Shown here in pieces: positions 54,779 to 64,000 of a DNA stretch of 64,000 bases. Source of the stretch: an uncultured Chloroflexia bacterium (GTDB taxonomy: Bacteria > Chloroflexota > Limnocylindria > Limnocylindrales > CSP1-4); contig CAVVJT010000007.1 in the NCBI GenBank assembly GCA_963748625.1, positions 768,001 through 832,000 on the forward strand. Reading direction: 5' to 3'. Positions within the stretch are counted from its first letter, which is position 1; each line of letters opens with the position of its first letter. The translations under genes were made by a program, and so were the position numbers. Under the pieces are notes generated by a model that saw only the letters and a list, made by a program, of their open reading frames with translations, had not been told where the DNA came from and ran no database searches.

Positions 54779-54800
54779 TGGTCGGGGCGAGGGGGATCGA
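54779..54800 (-). mobile_element. att-like relic of a tRNA-Pro 3' end (copy A)
   Basis: Minus strand reads tcgatccccctcgccccgaCCA. Confidence 0.65.
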
Positions 54801-54931
54801 CCCGACGGAACCTACCTCATCGACGCGCTGTGACCGTTCCTGGATCGTCGGCGGGTCCCCTCCAATGCACGGCGCGGGCTGCGGCGTCGGCGGAGAGGCC
54901 CGCGCGATGACCCTGGCCTCGATGCTGCGAG

Positions 54932-54988
54932 TCAGGCCTTCGGCTTCGTGGTCTTCGGCTTCTTCGGGGTCTTTGCCTTCTTGTCCAC
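54932..54988 (-). CDS. 18-aa Lys/Pro-rich small peptide MDKKAKTPKKPKTTKPKA
   Basis: GAGGAG RBS 8 nt before GTG; all Lys codons are AAG. Confidence 0.5.
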   Translation of the reverse strand: MDKKAKTPKKPKTTKPKA

Positions 54989-55122
54989 TCTGGCATCTCC
55001 TCTCAAACGCACCACGTTCGTCGCGGCATGAACGGCGATAGTCGCCGACCTGCATCTTGCGCCCACCCTGCCAATCCCGCCCAGCACCGGCGACCAATCG
55101 TCCGCTCGCCAGCCCGCGTGCG

Positions 55123-55470
55123 TCAACCTCGGCCGAGGACCACGTCGATGCCGGCCAGGACGAGCTCGAGGCTCGAGGCGGACAGGCGCCCGGTGCGCTC
55201 CGTCAAGGCGGCCCTGTCCAGGGTCACGATCTGGGACACGTTCGCGACCGACGGCTTCGTCAGGCCGGTAGCGCGGGCGGGCAGCAGCACGCTGCTCGGC
55301 GCGTCGGCCCACCGCGTGTTGCTGGTGAGGGCCACACAGACAACGGTCCGTAGGTTGCTCGCGTTGAAAGCGTCGCCCTGGACGACGACGACGGGGCGGC
55401 GGAAGCCAGGCTCGGAGCCCGCGGGGTCGGCGAGGTCCGCCAACCAGACCTCTCCCCGGGCGATTACCAC
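55123..55470 (-). CDS. mazF: PemK/MazF family toxin
   Basis: RGEVWLADL..P.GSEPGFRRPVVVVQ, SVANVSQI motifs. Confidence 0.92.
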   Translation of the reverse strand: MVIARGEVWLADLADPAGSEPGFRRPVVVVQGDAFNASNLRTVVCVALTSNTRWADAPSSVLLPARATGLTKPSVANVSQIVTLDRAALTERTGRLSASSLELVLAGIDVVLGRG

Positions 55471-55650
55471 TCCGTCGACTCGAGCGTGCGCCGCGCGGAC
55501 CGGGCGGCGAAGTCAGCCGCATCCGGCTGGCCCACGTCCGCGATGACCGCGTCGAGGCCCACCGTCACCTCGTCGGGCGCGTGACGCGCGAGGTACTCGC
55601 GGAGAGCGGCGCTGTAGACCTCGGACCGCGAGCGGCGAGAGCGCTTCCCG
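55464..55650 (-). pseudogene. 5'-truncated RHH antitoxin of the MazF pair
   Basis: SRSEVYSAALREYLARH...EW overlaps the toxin start; the N-terminal beta-strand and start are missing. Confidence 0.7.
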
Positions 55651-55690
55651 GCATGGTGGCTGCCGGTGCACGTCTGGTGCGACGCGGGAC

Positions 55691-56104
55691 TCAGCCCGCT
55701 GCCTCGAGCTCCGCGAGGAACGCAGCGGGCCGGCGCACGGGGATCCGGTCCGCGAGGTCGGTCATGTGGGTGTCGCCGGACACGATGACCGCGCGTGCCG
55801 CGGTGGCGAGCGCGACCAGGTAATCGTCGTTGGGATCGCCAGACCGTATGGGCGGCGGGCCGGGCGGATCGAGCACGAGCTCCGCCGTCCTGCCGAGCAG
55901 GGTGACGAGCGCGTCGACATCGGCCGGGGGCACCAGGCGGGCGAGCTTCGGATAGCCGAGGGCTCGCCGCAGCTCGGCGAGGAGCAACGGCGAGACGACG
56001 AGCTCGAAGGCACCGTTGCGCCACGCCACGAGCAGCCGCCCGGGGGCGCCATGGGGGGAGAGGACAGCCGAGATCAGGACGTTGACGTCAAGGACGGCGC
56101 GCAC
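55691..56104 (-). CDS. PIN-family toxin (PIN_3-like)
   Basis: AVLDVNVLISA, EL, DPNDDY, IVSGD motifs. Confidence 0.9.
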   Translation of the reverse strand: MRAVLDVNVLISAVLSPHGAPGRLLVAWRNGAFELVVSPLLLAELRRALGYPKLARLVPPADVDALVTLLGRTAELVLDPPGPPPIRSGDPNDDYLVALATAARAVIVSGDTHMTDLADRIPVRRPAAFLAELEAAG

Positions 56105-56115
56105 GACAGCGCAGA

Positions 56116-56337
56116 TCAGGTGCGGGTAGCGTGCTGCGCCTCGAGTGCGAGGGCCATCGCCTCGTCCTCGGACAGGTCGTTGGCTGCCCACAGGCGGTCC
56201 AGGAGATCCAGGCCGAGGTCCCGGCGGAGCGCCTCCTCGATCACGTCGCTGTCGCCCTTGCCGAGTCGTGCGGCACGGATCTTCACCGCACGCAGCACCT
56301 CGGGATCGATCGTAAGGGTCGTCCGCACCTTCGTCAT
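56116..56337 (-). CDS. RHH antitoxin
   Basis: KVRTTLTID.EVLRAVK..AAR.G..DSDVIEEALR; inverted repeat cgcatca...tgatgcg upstream (56341-56362). Confidence 0.85.
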   Translation of the reverse strand: MTKVRTTLTIDPEVLRAVKIRAARLGKGDSDVIEEALRRDLGLDLLDRLWAANDLSEDEAMALALEAQHATRT

Positions 56338-56468
56338 GAGCGCATCATCGCATCTTGATGCGTTGGTGAGCAAGAGCCCGACACACCTCGGCCCGAACCC
56401 CGACGGAACCGACCTCATCGGAATCGACCGGGTACCCCAGTGCGAGCGCCATCCCCAGGCTAGCCGAG

Positions 56469-56561
56469 CTACAGCGCGGTGAGGATCGCGAGCACTGACG
56501 GCACGATGAAGATGGCCACGAACGCGGCCGTCAGGAGGGGCTCGCCAACGCGGCGGATCAT
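56469..56561 (-). CDS. Possible 30-aa hydrophobic single-TM peptide
   Basis: MIRRVGEPLLTAAFVAIFIVPSVLAILTAL; no clear RBS. Confidence 0.35.
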   Translation of the reverse strand: MIRRVGEPLLTAAFVAIFIVPSVLAILTAL

Positions 56562-56564
56562 CCA

Positions 56565-56576
56565 CGGGGCGAGAGG
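56565..56576 (-). mobile_element. att-like core relic (copy B)
   Basis: cggggcgagagg, identical to the core of the 60549 copy and in the same orientation. Confidence 0.5.
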
Positions 56577-56664
56577 CTTTGCGCCGAGACCAAGTACCAA
56601 CACGTGATCACGGCGTGGAACACACCGTGCGGGCGCCCGTGGCCGGTCCGGCCACCCGGCCTTG

Positions 56665-58437
56665 TCACCAGGGCCCTGAATCGAGCAACCTCATGAAGTT
56701 GCGCTTGCGTGCGTGGGCCGCCCGAACGCCCGCAAGGTACACCGGAAACACGTCACCGGATCCGGTTCTGTCCATCAGGTCCCGGATGTGTCCCAGCAGC
56801 TCGACCGCCGCCGCGTAGCCGTCGTTGGTCATCGTCTGCAGGAGGGCCTCCACCTCGCCCTGGTGGATGGGGATCGCGTCCGCAGGGTGGTCGATCTCCC
56901 GCCGTCGTGCCAGTTCCCGCCAGGCGGGCTCCGAACACCCCAGCGTCACGGCCTCCCGCCACGCGCTGTCCACGTCGCCCTCGAGCAGGAGCATCCGCAC
57001 GAGGGCGGTGCCATCCGCGGGGAGGTCCCAACGGTTCGCGGGTGGCCGGGCGTCCCGCTGCGCCTCGACAATGGACGCGCGAGCGGCGTCGAGGGCACGC
57101 GTCCGCCAGGCCGGCCACGCACCGGCGCGGCTCGCGTGGGCCCTGAGCGCGGCGAAGCCCTCGACGGTCGGCCGGACCTCGAACGGCGCCCAGGCGAGGG
57201 CGATCGCGTCGTCGTGGCGCCCCCGCTCGTGGTACCGGTCGGCCAGGAACTCGCGCAGGCGAGCGTCCGGCGGGTCCGGGAAGGCGCGGGTCCCCTGCTC
57301 GGCCCAGTCCAGCGCCTCCTCGTCCCGGCCGGCGTCCATGCACACCCGGGCGATGTCGAGGTACGCGTACGGGCTCGAGAGGTCGCGGGCCTTGACCGCG
57401 AGCAGCTCGTCGACGTCGCCGGTCGCCCGGGCGAGCGACTCCATGATCGAGGTGATCCGGAAGCGCCGGCCCTCGAATGACTGGCCGCCGCCGGATGCCG
57501 GACCCAGCGCCGGCACCCCGGCCCACACAGCCTCGGCCCGGCGCCGGTACTCCGCGAGGCCCGCCTCGCCGAGGACACCGGCATACACCTGCGCGGCGCC
57601 TGCGAACACGTCCCACCGGCCGTCGAGCTCCCAGGCGAAGAGGCGGCCGGCAAGCACGATCGGGTCCGGGCGTGCCACCTCGCACGCGGCCAGGTGCAGG
57701 TCCCCCACGCGCCCGAGGATGCCGCCCATCCCGCCGTCCGAGTCGTCGACGTGGTCCAGCGCGGCTTCGACACGCCGGAGGGCGTGCTCGGCGAGGTCGA
57801 TCACGGCGTCGGCCTGCCCGGCGCGCAGCAGGTCGTCGAGAAGGTCGATGGCATCGTGGATCCCCGACACGTAGCCGTACACGTCCGCGTAGCGGAGGTG
57901 GCGCGGGAGGCGGACCGCCTGGTCGATCGCCCGGCCGACCAGCGCGGCACCGGCGCCATCCGCCTCGGCCGCCGCCACGAGCAGCAGGAGGCGCTCGCGG
58001 AGCAGGTCGTCCCGCTCGGCCTGCGCGAGGACCAGGTCAACGAGGGCGTCGCGGTCCATCGCCGCGAGGTGGCTCCGGATGTCCTCGGTCGTGATCCTCG
58101 GCGGCCGGGCCCTCGCGCGGGCACGTGATCGGGAACCCGGGCCCTGGAGGCCCCTCGCCTGGCCAAGCCACGCGAGGCCGAGGGCGACCAGGTGCTTGCA
58201 GAAGGCGCCGGTCTCGCCCATCGGGCAGTCGCAGGTCCCGGTCAGGCCGTCGCTCCCGGCCGCGAGGACCACCCCGTAGTCGCGTGTGCCCTCGACGATC
58301 CCGGTGATGGCGGCGCCCTCCTCGGCGAGATCGGCCACGCGGCCCTCGTCCGCGTACTCGCGCCCGCGGACGAACGTGCGATCGCCGGCATGAAGGCGCA
58401 GGGCCTTGGGCGTGACGAGCTCCCGGAGGCTGCTCAT
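56665..58437 (-). CDS. SWIM zinc-finger protein with helical/TPR-like C-terminus
   Basis: RG.EY...G.V N-terminus and CDCP...FCKH SWIM motif. Confidence 0.88.
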   Translation of the reverse strand: MSSLRELVTPKALRLHAGDRTFVRGREYADEGRVADLAEEGAAITGIVEGTRDYGVVLAAGSDGLTGTCDCPMGETGAFCKHLVALGLAWLGQARGLQGPGSRSRARARARPPRITTEDIRSHLAAMDRDALVDLVLAQAERDDLLRERLLLLVAAAEADGAGAALVGRAIDQAVRLPRHLRYADVYGYVSGIHDAIDLLDDLLRAGQADAVIDLAEHALRRVEAALDHVDDSDGGMGGILGRVGDLHLAACEVARPDPIVLAGRLFAWELDGRWDVFAGAAQVYAGVLGEAGLAEYRRRAEAVWAGVPALGPASGGGQSFEGRRFRITSIMESLARATGDVDELLAVKARDLSSPYAYLDIARVCMDAGRDEEALDWAEQGTRAFPDPPDARLREFLADRYHERGRHDDAIALAWAPFEVRPTVEGFAALRAHASRAGAWPAWRTRALDAARASIVEAQRDARPPANRWDLPADGTALVRMLLLEGDVDSAWREAVTLGCSEPAWRELARRREIDHPADAIPIHQGEVEALLQTMTNDGYAAAVELLGHIRDLMDRTGSGDVFPVYLAGVRAAHARKRNFMRLLDSGPW

Positions 58438-58486
58438 GACGGGGAGGCCATGAGCCCTTGGAGCCGGATGGCCGCCAGCGACCCGA

Positions 58487-59383
58487 TCACGGTTGCCAGA
58501 TCCGGGTGGACGGGTCCCAGCGCAGACCCATCATGCCCGCGAGCACGGGCTCGAGGAATGCGATGAGCGCCGCGTGTGCCTCTCGCGTCGTCGGAGGGTC
58601 GAGCGCCATCTCCTTCCGCAGTGCCACGTACGGGCGGGCCCATGCCTCGGGTGGCTCCGTGAGCGCCGGCGGCCAGGCATGCGAGGCCCGACGCGCGAAG
58701 GTGGCCGTCGCGGCGTCGATGAGCGCATCGCTCGAGAACGCGTGGCGTTGCGCGAACCAGACCATGTCGGCGAGGTCCTTCGCCCGGGTGTTCTCGGTGT
58801 CGCGCGGGAGGGTGTAGGCGTGCAGCTTCTCCGCAAACTGCTGGGCGACCGGGTAGACCGGGAACCAGGCACGCTCGAACCCGAGGCGCTCGACGAGCGG
58901 GTCGCTCGGGTGGCGCTCGAGCGCGCCGGCCACCGCGTCCCGGGAGCTGATGTCCAGCTTGAAGCGCACGAGCTCGGCGCCGGCGACCCGGGCGACGACG
59001 ACGAACCGGAGGCCGCCGCCGGGCGGCCCGGGCAGGAGGCGCGGCGGGCCCGCCAGCTCATACGTGAAGGGGTCGTCGATGACGTGGCCGACGGCGGCCG
59101 CGATCATCCCGGCTGCCGTGTCGATGCCGGCGTCGATCCGCAGGTCCACGTCCTCGGTGAAGCGGGCCTCGCCCGGGTGCCGCAGCTGGTTCGCGTACCC
59201 GCCCTTGAGGACCCACGTCCCCCACGGTGTCGTCGCGAGCAGGCGCACGAGGAACCGGTCGATCGCGACCGTGAGGTGGACCCGCCGCACCGGCTCATCG
59301 CCCGCAGCGTCTCGGGCGACGTTGCGCATCCGCGCGAGGAGCGCCTGCCTCATGCCGAGCTCGGTGAGGCGCGGATCGGTCAC
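58487..59383 (-). CDS. abiEii: AbiEii/AbiGii nucleotidyltransferase toxin (type IV TA)
   Basis: WVLKGG, RFTEDVD, AEKLHA, RAKDLAD motifs; GTGA-coupled to the antitoxin. Confidence 0.9.
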   Translation of the reverse strand: MTDPRLTELGMRQALLARMRNVARDAAGDEPVRRVHLTVAIDRFLVRLLATTPWGTWVLKGGYANQLRHPGEARFTEDVDLRIDAGIDTAAGMIAAAVGHVIDDPFTYELAGPPRLLPGPPGGGLRFVVVARVAGAELVRFKLDISSRDAVAGALERHPSDPLVERLGFERAWFPVYPVAQQFAEKLHAYTLPRDTENTRAKDLADMVWFAQRHAFSSDALIDAATATFARRASHAWPPALTEPPEAWARPYVALRKEMALDPPTTREAHAALIAFLEPVLAGMMGLRWDPSTRIWQP

Positions 59384-59925
59384 GGGCGCGCGGTCGTGAA
59401 CGGGTACAGGCGCCGCAGCCGCGCGATGTCGTCGGCCGTGAGCAGGGCGCGCTCGTGTCCCTCCGCGAACGCGGCCAGCAGCTGGTCCGGGTCGGTACCG
59501 CCCTTCGCGCAGTCGGCGAGCGTCCGGGCGAACGACGTCACCCATACGCCGTCGCGCAGCACGCGCTCGGCAGGGCCGATGGCCGAACGGTGGATCGTGT
59601 AGCCGGGGCGCGGCTTGAGGCCCGAGCCAGGCGGGACGGTGATGTGGACCGTGCGCGGCAGGACATCGCTGACGCCGTAGAGCTCGAGGGCCGTGTCGTG
59701 GCTGAACGTGGCGGACGGCGCCTGGACCGAGAACGCGTAGAAGCCGTCGAGGTGGCTCGCGGGTGTCCCGGCTAGGCGGTAGACGCCGTGGGCGACCCGC
59801 TCGACGAGCCCGCGCCGGGCGCGGTCCACGAGGGCCCGCCGGCTGATCCCGGCGGCGGCGGCCTGCGCGGTGCTGAAGTAGCCGTGCTGGGCGGCGGCAA
59901 GGTGGAGTAGATCACTCTCTGCCAT
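59380..59925 (-). CDS. abiEi: AbiEi antitoxin (type IV TA)
   Basis: A..QHGYFSTAQA, RV.HGVYRL, SHDTAL, VTS.ARTLAD motifs. Confidence 0.9.
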   Translation of the reverse strand: MAESDLLHLAAAQHGYFSTAQAAAAGISRRALVDRARRGLVERVAHGVYRLAGTPASHLDGFYAFSVQAPSATFSHDTALELYGVSDVLPRTVHITVPPGSGLKPRPGYTIHRSAIGPAERVLRDGVWVTSFARTLADCAKGGTDPDQLLAAFAEGHERALLTADDIARLRRLYPFTTARP

Positions 59926-59931
59926 CACCGA

Positions 59932-59960
59932 ATGTTACGCACCACGTAACAATTGGTCAA
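59932..59960 (-). promoter_or_regulatory. abiE promoter with overlapping inverted-repeat operator
   Basis: TTGACC-17 nt-TAACAT-6 nt-ATG; palindrome tgttacg-cacca-cgtaaca at 59933-59951. Confidence 0.75.
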
Positions 59961-60015
59961 GCTCTTCGCATTGACTACTTCACCCGTCATCCCTGACCGG
60001 CTCGACGTGACCGTT

Positions 60016-60473
<458 letters not shown>

Positions 60474-60504
60474 GGCATGGCCGATGATCCCGCCCACTGC
60501 CCGG

Positions 60505-60537
60505 CAACAAAGAGCCGGACCGCGGTGGTCCGGCTCT
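60505..60537 (-). terminator. Intrinsic terminator just downstream of the tRNA 3'-end relic
   Basis: agagccggacc-5 nt-ggtccggctct hairpin followed by ttgttg on the minus strand. Confidence 0.75.
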
Positions 60538-60548
60538 GGTGTGGAGAC

Positions 60549-60567
60549 TGGTCGGGGCGAGAGGGAT
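60549..60567 (-). mobile_element. att-like relic of a tRNA-Pro 3' end (copy C); left boundary of an island extending rightwards
   Basis: Minus strand reads atccctctcgccccgaCCA, followed by a terminator. Confidence 0.72.
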
Positions 60568-60663
60568 AGCCCCTCCCTAACTCAGCGATCGCTCAGCTTC
60601 CTGATGGTCAACGCCACGCCGCGGCAGCCGCCGGTGCCCCTCGAGCTGGTCCGCAGCGCATGA
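60550..60663 (+). pseudogene. Orphan C-terminal tail GRGERDSPSLTQRSLSFLMVNATPRQPPVPLELVRSA* (putative split recombinase tail)
   Basis: Open frame runs through the att relic and ends in an ATGA overlap with the next gene. Confidence 0.5.
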
Positions 60664-60905
60664 CGCGACGGTCGTCCCGCTCCGCCGAGCGCGCCACCGA
60701 CCGCGAGGTCGGGGTGGTCGCGGCCGTCCTGGTCGCCGGGTCGGAGAAGGCCGCCGCCCACCGCCTCGGCCTGTCGCCCTCGACGGTGAAGCACCACCTG
60801 GCGAATGCGCGGTCCAAGGTGGGGGCGACGACGACGGCGCAGCTGGTGTGGATCCTCGCTCCTCGGTTGCCCGAGCCGGAGGGCATGGCCCAAACGGACG
60901 AATGA
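60660..60905 (+). CDS. Small stand-alone LuxR-type HTH protein
   Basis: TDRE..VV......SEKAAAHRLGLSPSTVKHHLANARSKVGATTTAQLV LuxR HTH pattern. Confidence 0.85.
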   Translation: MTRRSSRSAERATDREVGVVAAVLVAGSEKAAAHRLGLSPSTVKHHLANARSKVGATTTAQLVWILAPRLPEPEGMAQTDE

Positions 60906-61237
60906 CGGCAGCTCGAGGCGCGGTCGCGCTATCGGGACCGCGCGAACCAGTCGTAGATCGACGCGGGGCCGTTGTAGACGCCGCCAGCCCGAGTCCGCTG
61001 ACGGGTGACTTCTCGAGACCGGCGGCAAGAGTCGCTCAACTGTTGGTGACCCGTGTACAGGGTCCGTTGACGCTCAGACTCGCAAGAGTACAATGACCTG
61101 TATTCAACGGTCCATTTGGACCGTTCGCTGTCTCGAGCCCCGAGCGAGGTGCGAGGGCGATGCGTCGACTCCTGATTTCGCCCGTCGTCATGGCCTAGGC
61201 CCCCGCGAGAGGACCGCGAGAGAAAGGGTCAGTGCTC

Positions 61238-62017
61238 ATGGAGAAGGCAATCCGGTTCAGGATTTTGGGATCCCTCGCCGTTGCGGCGGCGCTGGCGCTC
61301 CCAACTGGACCGGCGATGGCTGCCGAGTCCAGCACGGCGCAGGCGTACACGTGCACCGGTGGCGACATCCCGTCAGGCAACTACCGCAGCATCACGGTCA
61401 CGGGCCCCTGCTCCGTACCGGCCGATGCCGTGATCAGCGTAGTCGGGAACGTGAACGTCAGGGCCGGTGCCCAACTAGACGCGCAAAGCGCGCCCTCGGC
61501 GATCACCGTCGGACGCAACGTCACCGCGGCTGCGGGCTCGCTGCTCGGCCTGGGCTGCCAGCCGCCCTCGCTCACCGGAAACTCGGCACATGAGTGTGCC
61601 GTCGATCCGGAAGGACACTCCACCATCATCGTCAACGGAAACGTCACGGCAACCGACGCCGCTGCCGTTCTGTTGAACGGGATTACGGTCGAGGGGAACG
61701 TCACCCTGATCGGGGGAGGCTCGGCGATCCCCTGGTCGATCAAGAACAACACGATCGACCGCAACCTCACGGTGGGGGGGCAGACGACCGATTGGCTCGG
61801 CGTGCTCTTCAACACGATCGGTGGGAACGCGACGTTGATCGGCGTGAAGGTGACCGACGTTCACCCGGGCGCACCCGGCGTCTACATCGTTCGCAACACG
61901 ATCGGGCGGAACCTCATCTGCTTGGGATTGACCCCGGGAGTATCCGGAGGTTTCGTCCCCGGCAGCGTCAACGTCGTCGGCCGTCACGCGATCGGTCAGT
62001 GCGCATCCCTGGTCTGA
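61238..62017 (+). CDS. Secreted hypothetical protein, beta-helix-like (GNV repeats)
   Basis: Signal peptide, repeated I/V.GNV and NTIG.N units, Cys pairs. Confidence 0.75.
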   Translation: MEKAIRFRILGSLAVAAALALPTGPAMAAESSTAQAYTCTGGDIPSGNYRSITVTGPCSVPADAVISVVGNVNVRAGAQLDAQSAPSAITVGRNVTAAAGSLLGLGCQPPSLTGNSAHECAVDPEGHSTIIVNGNVTATDAAAVLLNGITVEGNVTLIGGGSAIPWSIKNNTIDRNLTVGGQTTDWLGVLFNTIGGNATLIGVKVTDVHPGAPGVYIVRNTIGRNLICLGLTPGVSGGFVPGSVNVVGRHAIGQCASLV

Positions 62018-62106
62018 CCTCGTTGGTCTGACCTCGTTCGGGCCATGTCCGTCCGCCATCCTCTGGGCCCCCAGCGTGTGGCGGACGGCGCCCGGCCCCC
62101 AACCGG

Positions 62107-62234
62107 CCTCGACCGTGAAGCACCACCTGGCGAACGCGCGGTCCAAGGTGGGCGCGGAGACGACGGCGCAGCCGGTGTGGATCCTGGCGCCGCGGCTGCC
62201 CGAGCCCGAGGGTGTGGCCGAAGCGGACGAGTAG
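62107..62234 (+). repeat. 3' fragment copy 2 of the small HTH gene
   Basis: Aligns without gaps to 60778-60905 and ends at its own stop codon (TAG). Confidence 0.92.
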
Positions 62235-62528
62235 CAGCCTCCTTGACGCAGTCGTTGGGCTCCTGGTTTGGACCTCCACTATCGGACGTGGGCGGTGGTG
62301 ACTCCGCCGCCGGGAGTTCCGCCTCAGCGCGAGACGCGTCGCTGGCCACGCAGGCCGGTCGTGGCTCCGACCCACGGCCCCCGAGTACTTCGCCTATGGC
62401 GATCTTCGCTTGGGATTACGCGTCCACTTGGTCGACCTGGTTGCCGCAATGGGTCAATTGCACAGCTGACGCGATGGGACGATAGTTGGCGCCCGGCCTG
62501 CATGGTCATTGGAAGGAGCGTCCCGACA

Positions 62529-63002
62529 GTGTTCAAGATCAGCCAGGGCATGGAGATCGAGCGGCCCGCGGCGGTCGTGTGGCCGTACCTCGCCGCTCTC
62601 GAGCAGGTGCCCCTATGGGAGCACGGCATCCTGGACGTCAAGCAGATCGACCAGGGACCCCTCTTCGTCGGGATGCGGTTCACGGCCGGGCGGGTCTACG
62701 CAGGCAAGGCCACGCACCTCGATGGCGACGTTCGGATCGTCGAGGAAGGGCACTTCCTGACCGCGGCCCTCCGGGGTGGTCCTCACGTCGAGTCGATCGT
62801 GACCTATACGGTTGACCCTGTCGGGGAGGAGCGGTGCCGGGTCACCTACAGCGCGACGGGCCGCATGCGGTTCCCGCTGAATCTGCTGGACCCGATCTTC
62901 CCCGCGGTCGGTCGCGCAGAGACTCGCAAGAACCTCGCCCGGTTGCGCCGCCGGATCCTGGCCGGCGTCCCGGCGACCTCGAACACGCCGACGCCCGACT
63001 AG
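62529..63002 (+). CDS. SRPBCC (START-like) family protein
   Basis: AAGGAG RBS; IERPAAVVW.YLA.....P.W and NLARLR motifs. Confidence 0.8.
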   Translation: MFKISQGMEIERPAAVVWPYLAALEQVPLWEHGILDVKQIDQGPLFVGMRFTAGRVYAGKATHLDGDVRIVEEGHFLTAALRGGPHVESIVTYTVDPVGEERCRVTYSATGRMRFPLNLLDPIFPAVGRAETRKNLARLRRRILAGVPATSNTPTPD

Positions 63003-63006
63003 GGGA

Positions 63007-63177
63007 CGCCGGGTCGGAGAAGGCCGCGGCCCACCGCCTGGGCTTGTCGCACTCGACCGTGAAGCACCACCTGCGAATGCGCGGTCCAAGGTGGGCGCAG
63101 CCACGACGGCGCAACTGGTGTGGATCCTCGCCCCGCGCCTGCCCGAGCCCGAGGGCGTGGTCCAGACGGACGACTAA
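63007..63177 (+). repeat. 3' fragment copy 3 of the small HTH gene
   Basis: Aligns to 60734-60905 with a 1-nt deletion and ends at its own stop codon (TAA). Confidence 0.92.
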
Positions 63178-63394
63178 CGAGCGTCCGCCGGGTATCGTCA
63201 GCCCATGGCTCGATGACCGTCGTGTGCCATCGCACGGTGCTGTCGGGCGCGTGCGCCGAGCGATGCACAGCCACGTCAAGAGCGGCAGAAACGACCGCAG
63301 ATCGAGTCGCGCCCCGGAGATGCGCCCGCGACGCTCGCGGCTTACGCTGCCTTTGTGCTGTGTGGCACTGGGGTGCGGAGGGAGGCAAGGACAG

Positions 63395-64000
63395 ATGTTT
63401 CGGACGCGTCTCACGGAACTCGTCGGATGCACACTGCCCATCCAGCAGGCTCCGATGGGCACGGTCTCCTCGCCGCGGCTCGCGGTCGCCGTCGCCGAGG
63501 CCGGCGGCATCGGCTCGATCAACACCCTCGCGATGTCGCGGGAGACCCTTCGGCGACGCCTGGACGAGATGCGTGAGCAGACCGATGGTGTGCTCGCGGT
63601 CAGCTTCCTCACCAACGACATTGATATCGACGCCGTCGCGGATGGCGCAGCGCGCGCGCGAATCATCGACTTCTTCTGGAGCGATCCTCGGCCTGATCTC
63701 GTCGACATCGCCCACCGGGGTGGAGCGCTGGTCAACTGGCAGGTCGGATCGAGGGAGGAGGCGCTCGCGGCGGTTCGAGCCGGCGCCGACATCGTCTGCG
63801 TTCAGGGTGTCGAGGCCGGCGGGCACTGCCGCGGCGACAGCCCGCTGCTGCCGCTGCTCTGCGAAGTGCTGGACGCCGTCGATGTGCCCGTCCTTGCCGC
63901 GGGCGGTATCGCCGATGCCCGCGGCGTCGCTGCCGCTATCGCTGTGGGGGCATCGGGTGTGCGGATGGGCACTCAATTCATTGCCACGGAAGAATCAGCA
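63395..64000 (+). CDS. Nitronate monooxygenase family flavoprotein (runs off the window end)
   Basis: Translated by eye: MFRTRLTELVGCTLPIQQAPMG...AVAEAGGIG...QGVEAGGH...AAGGIAD...GVRMGTQF. Confidence 0.9.
   Translation, partial: MFRTRLTELVGCTLPIQQAPMGTVSSPRLAVAVAEAGGIGSINTLAMSRETLRRRLDEMREQTDGVLAVSFLTNDIDIDAVADGAARARIIDFFWSDPRPDLVDIAHRGGALVNWQVGSREEALAAVRAGADIVCVQGVEAGGHCRGDSPLLPLLCEVLDAVDVPVLAAGGIADARGVAAAIAVGASGVRMGTQFIATEESA

Follow-up and report, generated by a model that had tools for sequence, protein, structure and literature searches.

The morons of lambdoid phages and mycobacteriophages are single genes with a promoter of their own that lie between phage modules, with joins at gene borders, and they are acquired by non-homologous joining of related phages. 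In SCCmec and composite elements of the staphylococcal cassette chromosome (SCC) at rlmH/orfX, a serine recombinase and a target at the 3′ end of a gene are combined with tandem cassettes that are split by short direct repeats of the end of the target, and some of these cassettes carry no recombinase. At rhs and cdiA loci, orphan toxin-immunity modules consist of an intact gene followed by displaced, 5′-truncated copies of its 3′ part, each with a partner gene, an arrangement attributed to incoming alleles that displace older ones. Here we analyze a 64,000-nt stretch of the genome of an uncultured Chloroflexia bacterium (hereafter the window), in which, from position 60660 to the right end, single cargo genes alternate with copies of a small gene encoding a LuxR-type helix-turn-helix (HTH) protein. 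The closest described case that we found is the set of ssrA-specific islands of Dehalococcoides (McMurdie et al. 2011, PMC3146451). In these islands, a CcrB-like large serine recombinase (LSR) has the 3′ end of the tmRNA gene as its target and inserts in the T-loop region, and the tandem islands, which hold variable cargo, are bounded by 20-bp direct repeats of that 3′ end. The same report also mentions SCCmec. The islands and the present locus are alike in phylum, in the use of an LSR, in the targeting of the 3′ end of a tRNA-like gene, in the tandem arrangement and in the short direct repeats. They differ in that the target is tmRNA there and tRNA-Pro here, that the Dehalococcoides elements are described as integrative mobilizable islands and not as phages, and that truncated copies of an element gene between the cargo genes are not described in the accessible portion of the report (PMC3146451).

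We consider it probable that the array in the window is a stack of phage morons at a tRNA hot spot, in which the morons are separated by scars of non-homologous joining between phages. The array opens with an intact 81-aa gene of the LuxR/GerE type (copy 1, 60660-60905, + strand). Its product scores 29.7 bits against the GerE domain (Pfam, cut-off 23.5, E = 4.9e-7), its closest solved chains in the PDB are the C-terminal domain of FixJ (9e-4) and GerE (0.018), and in PHROG it falls with sigma factors and regulators (1.1e-7); it is presumably a transcription regulator. Behind it, all on the + strand, stand a gene for a 261-aa protein (cargo 1, 61232-62017), HTH copy 2 (62104-62234, truncated at the 5′ side at about nt 116 of the gene), a gene for an SRPBCC protein (cargo 2, 62502-63002), HTH copy 3 (63004-63177, 5′-truncated at about nt 70-72) and a gene for a nitronate monooxygenase (NMO; cargo 3, 63395-64372), which crosses the window end at 64000. 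A fourth copy of 30 nt, which an initial annotation of the sequence had not recorded, lies just past the window end (blastn, 64677-64706 in window numbering). Relative to copy 1, the blastn identities are 87.4% over 127 nt for copy 2 (about 62104-62230, E = 2.5e-39), 88.3% over 171 nt for copy 3 (about 63004-63173, E = 1e-56) and 93% over 30 nt for copy 4. A blastn search with the HTH gene found no copy away from the array locus in the whole 4.63-Mb assembly.

The alternation of cargo genes with HTH 3′ copies after an intact gene, which the initial annotation had proposed, is borne out by the sequence and by blastn, and so are the three differing stop codons (TGA in copy 1, TAG in copy 2 and TAA in copy 3). 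The similarity, which had been said to stop precisely with the stop codon, in fact fades out over the next 0-25 nt or so, and a weakly conserved motif (cggtc.gct.gacgc.gtcg) follows the HTH stop in several relatives. Copy 3 had been placed 5 bp after the SRPBCC stop, which is approximately right (2-5 nt), with the correction that this copy is frameshifted by a 1-nt deletion near 63072/63073.

The differences between the copies concentrate at third codon positions. Copies 1 and 2 are separated by 10.0 synonymous and 6.0 non-synonymous differences, copies 1 and 3 by 14.0 and 5.0, and copies 2 and 3 by 8.5 and 6.5, which correspond to ratios of non-synonymous to synonymous divergence (dN/dS) of 0.18, 0.10 and 0.24, with dS values of 0.33-0.41 among the three. 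The synonymous bias anticipated by the initial annotation is therefore present in all three pairs. Copy 2 is also only 87% identical to copy 1 but 92-95% identical to copies found in other genomes, which indicates that the fragments come from different phage lineages, and both results agree with the earlier view of the copies as alleles of independently evolved functional genes. Copy 1 itself belongs to a unit that is truncated upstream.

Of 24 other genomes of the genus, 20 encode the HTH protein, most often more than once, with full and partial copies clustered together; it was found in none of 16 sister-family genomes. In a comparison with 69 genomes of the genus, 53 were matched by the array DNA, almost wholly through HTH fragments. 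In what follows, loci of relatives carry L numbers and their genomes G numbers, and positions beyond the window end are given in window numbering (position 4680 of L001 is 64680). In 20 fetched 20-kb loci of relatives we found a recurrent backbone, all on one strand, in the order LSR, HTH, a variable stretch, a non-coding leader of about 185 nt, a small membrane protein, an Amidase_2+LysM protein, a holin and an 88-aa paralogue of the HTH protein. Three IMG/VR contigs share this module and continue into genes for a P27-type small terminase subunit (TerS; Terminase_4, 6.5e-22) and a large terminase subunit (TerL), and then into further genes. Phage hallmark genes are found in relatives, with TerS, TerL and the amidase in L035 and L036 and TerL in the L034 record. 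Because the backbone runs into terminase genes, we assign it to a family of temperate tailed phages, previously undescribed, in uncultured Candidatus Limnocylindrales-type Chloroflexota. One IMG/VR provirus record of 42.2 kb, with a CheckV completeness estimate of 70%, contains the LSR, the lysis genes and TerL. The same record holds an internal HTH fragment and a duplicated leader, and the presence of these in a terminase-bearing provirus suggests that arrays form, or at least persist, in working phages.

As a separate observation, the conserved non-coding leader of about 185 nt was found in 34 further copies in relatives, where it stands before holin, endolysin or terminase genes. It is predicted to fold into nested stems, the outer one formed by GACGGCGCG and CGCGCCGTC, with compensatory changes in 2 of 27 predicted pairs. 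The leader has no Rfam family.

The attachment (att) site of these phages was located by comparison of the relatives. Their LSR contains the Resolvase and Recombinase domains (Pfam) and matches integrases in PHROG (5.8e-36). The LSR gene is directly followed by TGGTCGGGGCGAGAGG in all 10 fetched LSR loci of relatives, and in four of them (L058, L059, L060 and L067) this core continues into an intact tRNA-Pro(cgg) gene. The interval from the LSR stop to the HTH start contains an imperfect palindrome, about 50-56 nt long, with TGGTCGGGGCGAGAGG at its centre. The att core is about 95-111 nt upstream of the HTH start and not at the HTH 3′ end. The contig of the window holds four co-oriented copies of the 16-nt core, at 54779 (1 mismatch), 60549, 67879 and 68701, the last being the tRNA itself. 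Direct repeats of the target 3′ end thus bound the islands, with the intact tRNA at one end, as in an accretion hot spot. Four configurations of the core were found: host flank (B)-core-tRNA in L050; B-core-P′-HTH in the window (60475-60660), where P′ is the phage-side arm; LSR-P-core-tRNA in the four loci with the intact tRNA (L058, L059, L060 and L067); and the attP-like LSR-P-core-P′-HTH in L017, L028, L046 and L047, which could also be tandem junctions. From these configurations it follows that, among the genes of an integrated phage, HTH comes first after attL and the LSR gene comes last before attR.

The initial annotation had predicted a family of related integrative elements bearing the HTH gene at one end, and this description fits the LSR-type temperate phages at tRNA-Pro(CGG). 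It had also expected a recombinase near the array. In relatives the LSR gene does stand beside the HTH gene and next to the att site, but at the own locus no more than about 50 nt of this gene survive, within a 67-nt remnant, and many of the LSR genes beside HTH genes in relatives are themselves fragments of 55-321 aa. A tRNA gene between LSR and HTH was considered and rejected, as ARAGORN found none in 12 examples and the tRNA likeness is that of the 16-nt tRNA-Pro 3′ end. Rfam gave no real match for the array region, the single hit being a flavivirus element with an E value of 0.86. Across the genus, at least six sequence types follow the tRNA-Pro core (60549-60564 in the window, and relatives), and therefore several unrelated elements compete for one attachment site. 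Tandem elements at tRNA-Pro are evidently common.

The array sits in a 7.3-kb island (island B) between the core copies at 60549 and 67879. On the left, a flank with a terminator-like hairpin (the B flank, 60475-60548, + strand) has the sequence found downstream of the intact tRNA-Pro(CGG) in G050; in L050 this flank is followed by the core and the intact tRNA. It is succeeded by the att core TGGTCGGGGCGAGAGG (60549-60564, + strand), which is the attL of island B and the reverse complement of the tRNA-Pro(CGG) 3′ end, and by the P′ arm together with the HTH leader (60565-60659, + strand); copy 1 is the first gene inside attL. The P′ arm is conserved beside the core in L017, L028, L046, L047, L019 and others. 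Beyond the array lie a piece of the late-operon leader fused to HTH copy 4 (64680-64864 in window numbering, as are the following positions), a truncated remnant of an amidase-family gene (64934-65548), a holin gene (65539-65736; PHROG, 1.9e-10) and the gene of the HTH paralogue (65733-65999). Genes for SnoaL-like, TetR and F420H2-reductase-like proteins come next, and the island closes with attR, where 67 nt (67830-67896) match an LSR 3′ end with its P arm and core at 89.6% identity (core copy 67879-67894), the LSR part being only about 50 nt long. The tRNA-Pro(cgg) gene itself lies at 68701-68777 on the minus strand. Island B contains no terminase or structural genes and is therefore a dead element, the degraded remnant of a temperate prophage.

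The annotations of the cargo genes hold. Cargo 1 has a signal-peptide-like N-terminus, as judged by eye, and matched no family in the Pfam scan; cargo 2 belongs to Polyketide_cyc2 of the SRPBCC group (Pfam, 5.8e-14), its start codon not being fixed, and cargo 3 is an NMO (Pfam, 3.1e-49). A strong promoter-like site, TTGACG-16-TACAAT, lies upstream of cargo 1 (61067-61094, + strand, 10 of 12 positions matching), where 0.2 such sites were expected, and cargo 1 is the only cargo gene preceded by one. The single terminator-like site found, near 63337-63350, is not behind a cargo gene. Among the matches listed in the comparison of the array DNA with genomes of the genus, homologues of cargo 1 (78-79% nucleotide identity) occur in G041 and G019, a homologue of cargo 2 (78%) occurs on contig C3 of G024, and there is no relative of the NMO gene. 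Within 1.5 kb of the cargo 1 and cargo 2 homologues in relatives, we found no HTH gene, paralogue or LSR gene. The functions of SRPBCC proteins and NMO are not those of phage proteins, and, as far as these matches go, the cargo genes look like captured chromosomal-type genes. They would be expressed in lysogens.

In the mechanism that we propose, a phage family of uncultured Candidatus Limnocylindrales-type Chloroflexota integrates via its LSR into the 3′ end of tRNA-Pro(CGG), and the array would be the cargo (moron) region at the attL-proximal left end of a degraded prophage. The cargo is placed between the HTH gene and the conserved leader in front of the holin, endolysin and terminase genes, and would consist of captured genes of chromosomal type, at least one of them with its own promoter-like site. 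Each 5′-truncated HTH copy would be the scar of a non-homologous joining between two related phage genomes, which may have stood in tandem as prophages at the tRNA hot spot; an incoming phage that met a resident prophage would give the same product. In the left-hand genome the break would come directly behind the cargo, and in the right-hand one inside the LSR, attP or HTH, by which about one phage length would be removed and one complete phage with both cargoes kept. Repeated rounds would stack units that each comprise an HTH fragment and its downstream cargo.

The junctions in relatives can be compared with this scheme. Of 35 distinct leader copies, four (L044, L081, L096 and L117) break off after about 90-115 nt and are joined directly to a 5′-cut HTH gene, with break points that differ in each locus. 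A deletion of one unit length between two phage copies would be expected to leave just such a fusion. We surveyed 160 distinct HTH copies in relatives, none of which touches a locus edge, and found 76 to be full, 57 to be truncated at the 5′ side only, 11 at the 3′ side only and 16 at both ends. The excess of 5′-only over 3′-only cuts fits the need to keep the leftmost HTH gene and all downstream cargo intact. The median gap between consecutive HTH copies is 1.0 kb (53 intervals), and the stacking of cargo behind the HTH gene, as the initial annotation had described it, is borne out.

Shared units show which cargo travels with a fragment. A full HTH gene stands before a gene for a 139-aa cargo protein in L028, and the same cargo lies behind an HTH gene cut at codon 49 in L017, the unit being 92.8% identical over 694 nt; a truncated HTH gene with a two-gene cargo is common to L028 and L025 (81% over 1666 nt). 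Judged from these alignments, the HTH fragment is linked with the downstream and not with the upstream cargo. We infer that the joined phages were tandem or co-resident and that selection kept their genomes at unit length. The truncated HTH copies would then be a readable, ordered record of phage-phage fusions, each of which added a host-type gene, and such scars could serve the study of moron accumulation.

Several points weigh against this explanation. No intact tandem pair of prophages, the expected precursor, was found in the relatives examined, and no parent phage with a full HTH gene before cargo 2 or cargo 3 was found. Three consecutive junctions inside a gene of 246 nt demand either strong selection against extra DNA or later trimming, each of which is plausible for a packaged genome. 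We know of no LSR that uses attR- or attL-like sites for a second integration, and on this textbook behavior the formation of tandem elements at the tRNA is not explained by the enzyme. The 21-nt sequence with which the leader begins is the boundary of the cassette shared by L025 and L028, and a protein-binding or recombination role at this boundary is possible. Finally, the contiguity of the array rests on the assembly and on the analogous arrays elsewhere.

Among the alternatives, a passive graveyard fares best, and we regard it as unlikely. It would have phages integrate serially at tRNA-Pro while deletions in the host spare useful cargo, so that the arrays never exist in a working phage and phage genome length imposes no constraint. 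The element in the window is clearly dead, as this account would have it, lacking terminase and structural genes and retaining a truncated amidase gene and about 50 nt of the LSR gene; the locus is a hot spot of tandem islands with toxin-antitoxin and Abi genes; and the LSR fragments of 55-321 aa beside many HTH genes in relatives point the same way. Random decay, however, should cut the HTH gene about equally often on either side, whereas 57 copies are cut only at the 5′ side and 11 only at the 3′ side. The break points also lie close to both edges of the cargo region, and the HTH fragment with a duplicated leader in the 42.2-kb IMG/VR provirus stands in an element that still has its LSR, lysis genes and TerL.

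A cassette system, in which the 3′ region of the HTH gene serves as a recombination handle, broadens the idea of the initial annotation and seems to us rather improbable. Single units of cargo plus HTH fragment would leave one element and enter a related one, through the action of a site-specific enzyme or through homologous recombination between the 30-170 nt that the HTH copies share, and the array would be an active capture platform. The regular pattern, with its 1.0-kb median spacing in 53 intervals, would suit such a system, as would the predominance of 5′-only truncation (57 to 11), the cassettes common to genomes in different contexts and the repeats of 87-95% identity, which could support RecA-type exchange. 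The leader start has to be considered here as well. The leader opens with a 21-nt sequence that resembles the HTH 3′ end and holds a TGGCC-N5-GGCCA palindrome better conserved than its surroundings; this sequence, at the HTH stop and at the leader start, flanks the cargo region in a manner resembling attL and attR, and the conserved, palindromic leader start bounds the cargo region in at least 17 loci.

On the other side, the HTH repeat has no fixed 5′ boundary. The 73 truncation points at the 5′ side are spread over nt 31-195 with no hot spot, a result that also goes against the repeat as a recombination site, for which the initial annotation had taken it. The left edges of the HTH remnant before the leader are likewise ragged, being mostly at about 21 nt, at 30 nt in the present locus, at 60 nt or more in L033 and at 93 nt or more in L029. 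The cargo of relatives lies on either strand, with 40 open reading frames (ORFs) in the 53 intervals on the same strand as the HTH copies and 27 on the opposite strand, as called by a crude script based on GC content at third codon positions (GC3) that missed some genes (AbiEi and NMO at the own locus); in the window, all three cargo genes are co-oriented. Moreover, the module has just one recombinase associated with it, and this enzyme acts upstream of the HTH gene, at the tRNA core; the fragments are linked to downstream and not to upstream cargo; and large deletions account better for the leader-HTH fusions. We also considered a site-specific core at the HTH 3′ end (ATGGCCCAA.CGG..) and rejected it because of the ragged left edges and the position of the att core elsewhere. 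The palindromic leader start may instead be a binding site, perhaps for the HTH protein or its paralogue.

In a related form, HTH 3′ fragments would be kept as homology handles by which single-gene morons are moved, deleted and re-deployed among co-resident LSR prophages. We hold this rather improbable. If it were true, the attL-proximal end would be a homology-driven, direction-biased cassette rack with an integron-like function and no cassette integrase.

Integrons themselves are similar in that mostly single-gene units are arrayed behind a platform beside a gene for a site-specific recombinase. They differ in the enzyme, which is the tyrosine recombinase IntI, whereas the recombinase beside the HTH gene in relatives is an LSR; in the repeat, which is an attC site with fixed borders there and a coding sequence here, with a 5′ border anywhere from nt 31 to nt 195 and a linkage to the downstream gene; and in the co-orientation of cassettes behind a common promoter, which contrasts with the 40 to 27 distribution of strands in relatives and with the separate promoter-like site of cargo 1. 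The integron-like capture array of the initial annotation is thus not supported, in view of the scattered truncation points, the mixed strands, the position of the recombinase core at the tRNA end and the downstream linkage, and the array is not an integron-like system. It is probably the product of tandem accretion at a tRNA gene and of moron stacking by illegitimate phage recombination, each addition being marked by a truncated copy of the first phage gene. The pattern is real, genus-wide and mechanistically ordinary, and a new gene-capture mechanism is no longer needed to explain it.

The locus also differs from the other known systems in specific ways. In SCC arrays the repeats are recombination sites at fixed positions; at the present locus this role belongs to the tRNA end, the true att repeat, and not to the HTH fragments, whose ends vary. 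In rhs and cdiA loci, the variable part is the gene's own 3′ end with its immunity gene, and exchange relies on homologous sequence in the conserved core; in the present array it is the 3′ end that is conserved, and the cargo has no relation to HTH. Phage morons are alike in their insertion between conserved modules and in illegitimate joining. We know of no description of regular, genus-wide, 5′-truncated copies of a neighboring gene that mark each moron addition, and a record-level literature search found no description of the pattern or of these phages.

The weakest explanation, which we consider extremely improbable, is an assembly artefact in which strain variants were joined into a chimera through the HTH repeat of the metagenome-assembled genome; a contamination estimate of 7.7% and 455 nt of A/T junk 186 nt upstream of the array, exactly at the att junction, speak for it, whereas the repeats are only 127-171 nt long, about 12% diverged and each attached to a different non-HTH sequence at the 5′ end, analogous arrays occur in dozens of other assemblies, including the one-contig genomes G006 and G055 and IMG/VR contigs, and the contig continues for 500 kb to the right.

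The A/T stretch itself (60020-60474) consists of 299 A, 152 T, 3 G and 1 C, that is, 99% A/T within a genome of 71% G+C, and opens with about 70 A. It contains the only A/T-only run of at least 60 nt in the assembly, and no A/T-only run of at least 40 nt occurs in roughly 1 Mb of sequence from related loci. The stretch starts at the very position where an att core would be expected after an LSR 3′ remnant, and to its right the host-type tRNA-Pro flank begins mid-sequence. The stretch is probably an artefact of assembly or base calling at a strain-variable integration hot spot, and a mis-join is possible. The adjacency of the Abi/toxin island on its left to the array should not be trusted. The array lies wholly to the right of the A/T stretch, on the part of the contig that continues for 500 kb rightward.

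To the left of the A/T stretch, a copy of the core with one mismatch, TGGTCGGGGCGAGGGG (54779-54794, + strand), was detected in the scan of the own genome and is followed by a degenerate tRNA-like arm. This copy is the left edge of a second island (island A, 54779-60019), whose genes, all identified by Pfam and all on the minus strand, encode a MazF/PemK toxin (55126-55470), a DUF6880/SWIM protein (56665-58437) and an AbiEii/AbiEi pair (58487-59928). Its right border is a 30-nt remnant with the 3′ end and P arm of another LSR lineage (59989-60019, + strand). The motif of this remnant terminates an LSR reading frame in L148, and a full core follows it 2 nt later in three of four relatives (L146, L147 and L148), L150 having the first core bases only. 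Since island A is bounded by a core copy and an LSR 3′ remnant, we regard it as a defence/addiction island at the same hot spot.

On the other side of island B, an islet of 0.8 kb (67879-68700 in window numbering; L014 2505-3355) with a gene for a HepT-like RNase toxin lies between the prophage remnant and tRNA-Pro. It begins with the att core and a degenerate tRNA-like arm. G024 contains a stretch with 96% identity to the islet; there, another phage lies between it and the tRNA side.

A second LSR lineage of the genus, with 33-34% identity to the first (for example, in L034), has an analogous palindrome around TGGCGCGCCCGACAGG. This core is the 3′ end of the own tRNA-Arg(CCG) gene (C8:28851-28926), which lies directly after an LSR gene (G000 C8:27443-28926), and in L034, L024, L031 and L033 the type B palindrome that separates LSR from HTH is centred on it. 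Two further TGGCGCGCCCGACAGG cores with a degenerate tRNA-like continuation are present at C7:1271787 and C7:1274074. On the basis of these sequences, the LSRs in this genus appear to have tRNA 3′ ends as their targets and to share long cores with them. The likely attachment chemistry is that LSRs share 16-nt cores with the 3′ end of tRNA-Pro(CGG) and, in the second lineage, with that of tRNA-Arg(CCG). The att pairs may interest collectors of serine integrases, although such use is ordinary.

The 88-aa HTH paralogue was also found doubled around a two-gene insert (families F13 and F14) that is shared by L014 (4381-6543) and L031 (14016-16293). The position of the paralogue may be a second site of duplication with cargo on the phage backbone.

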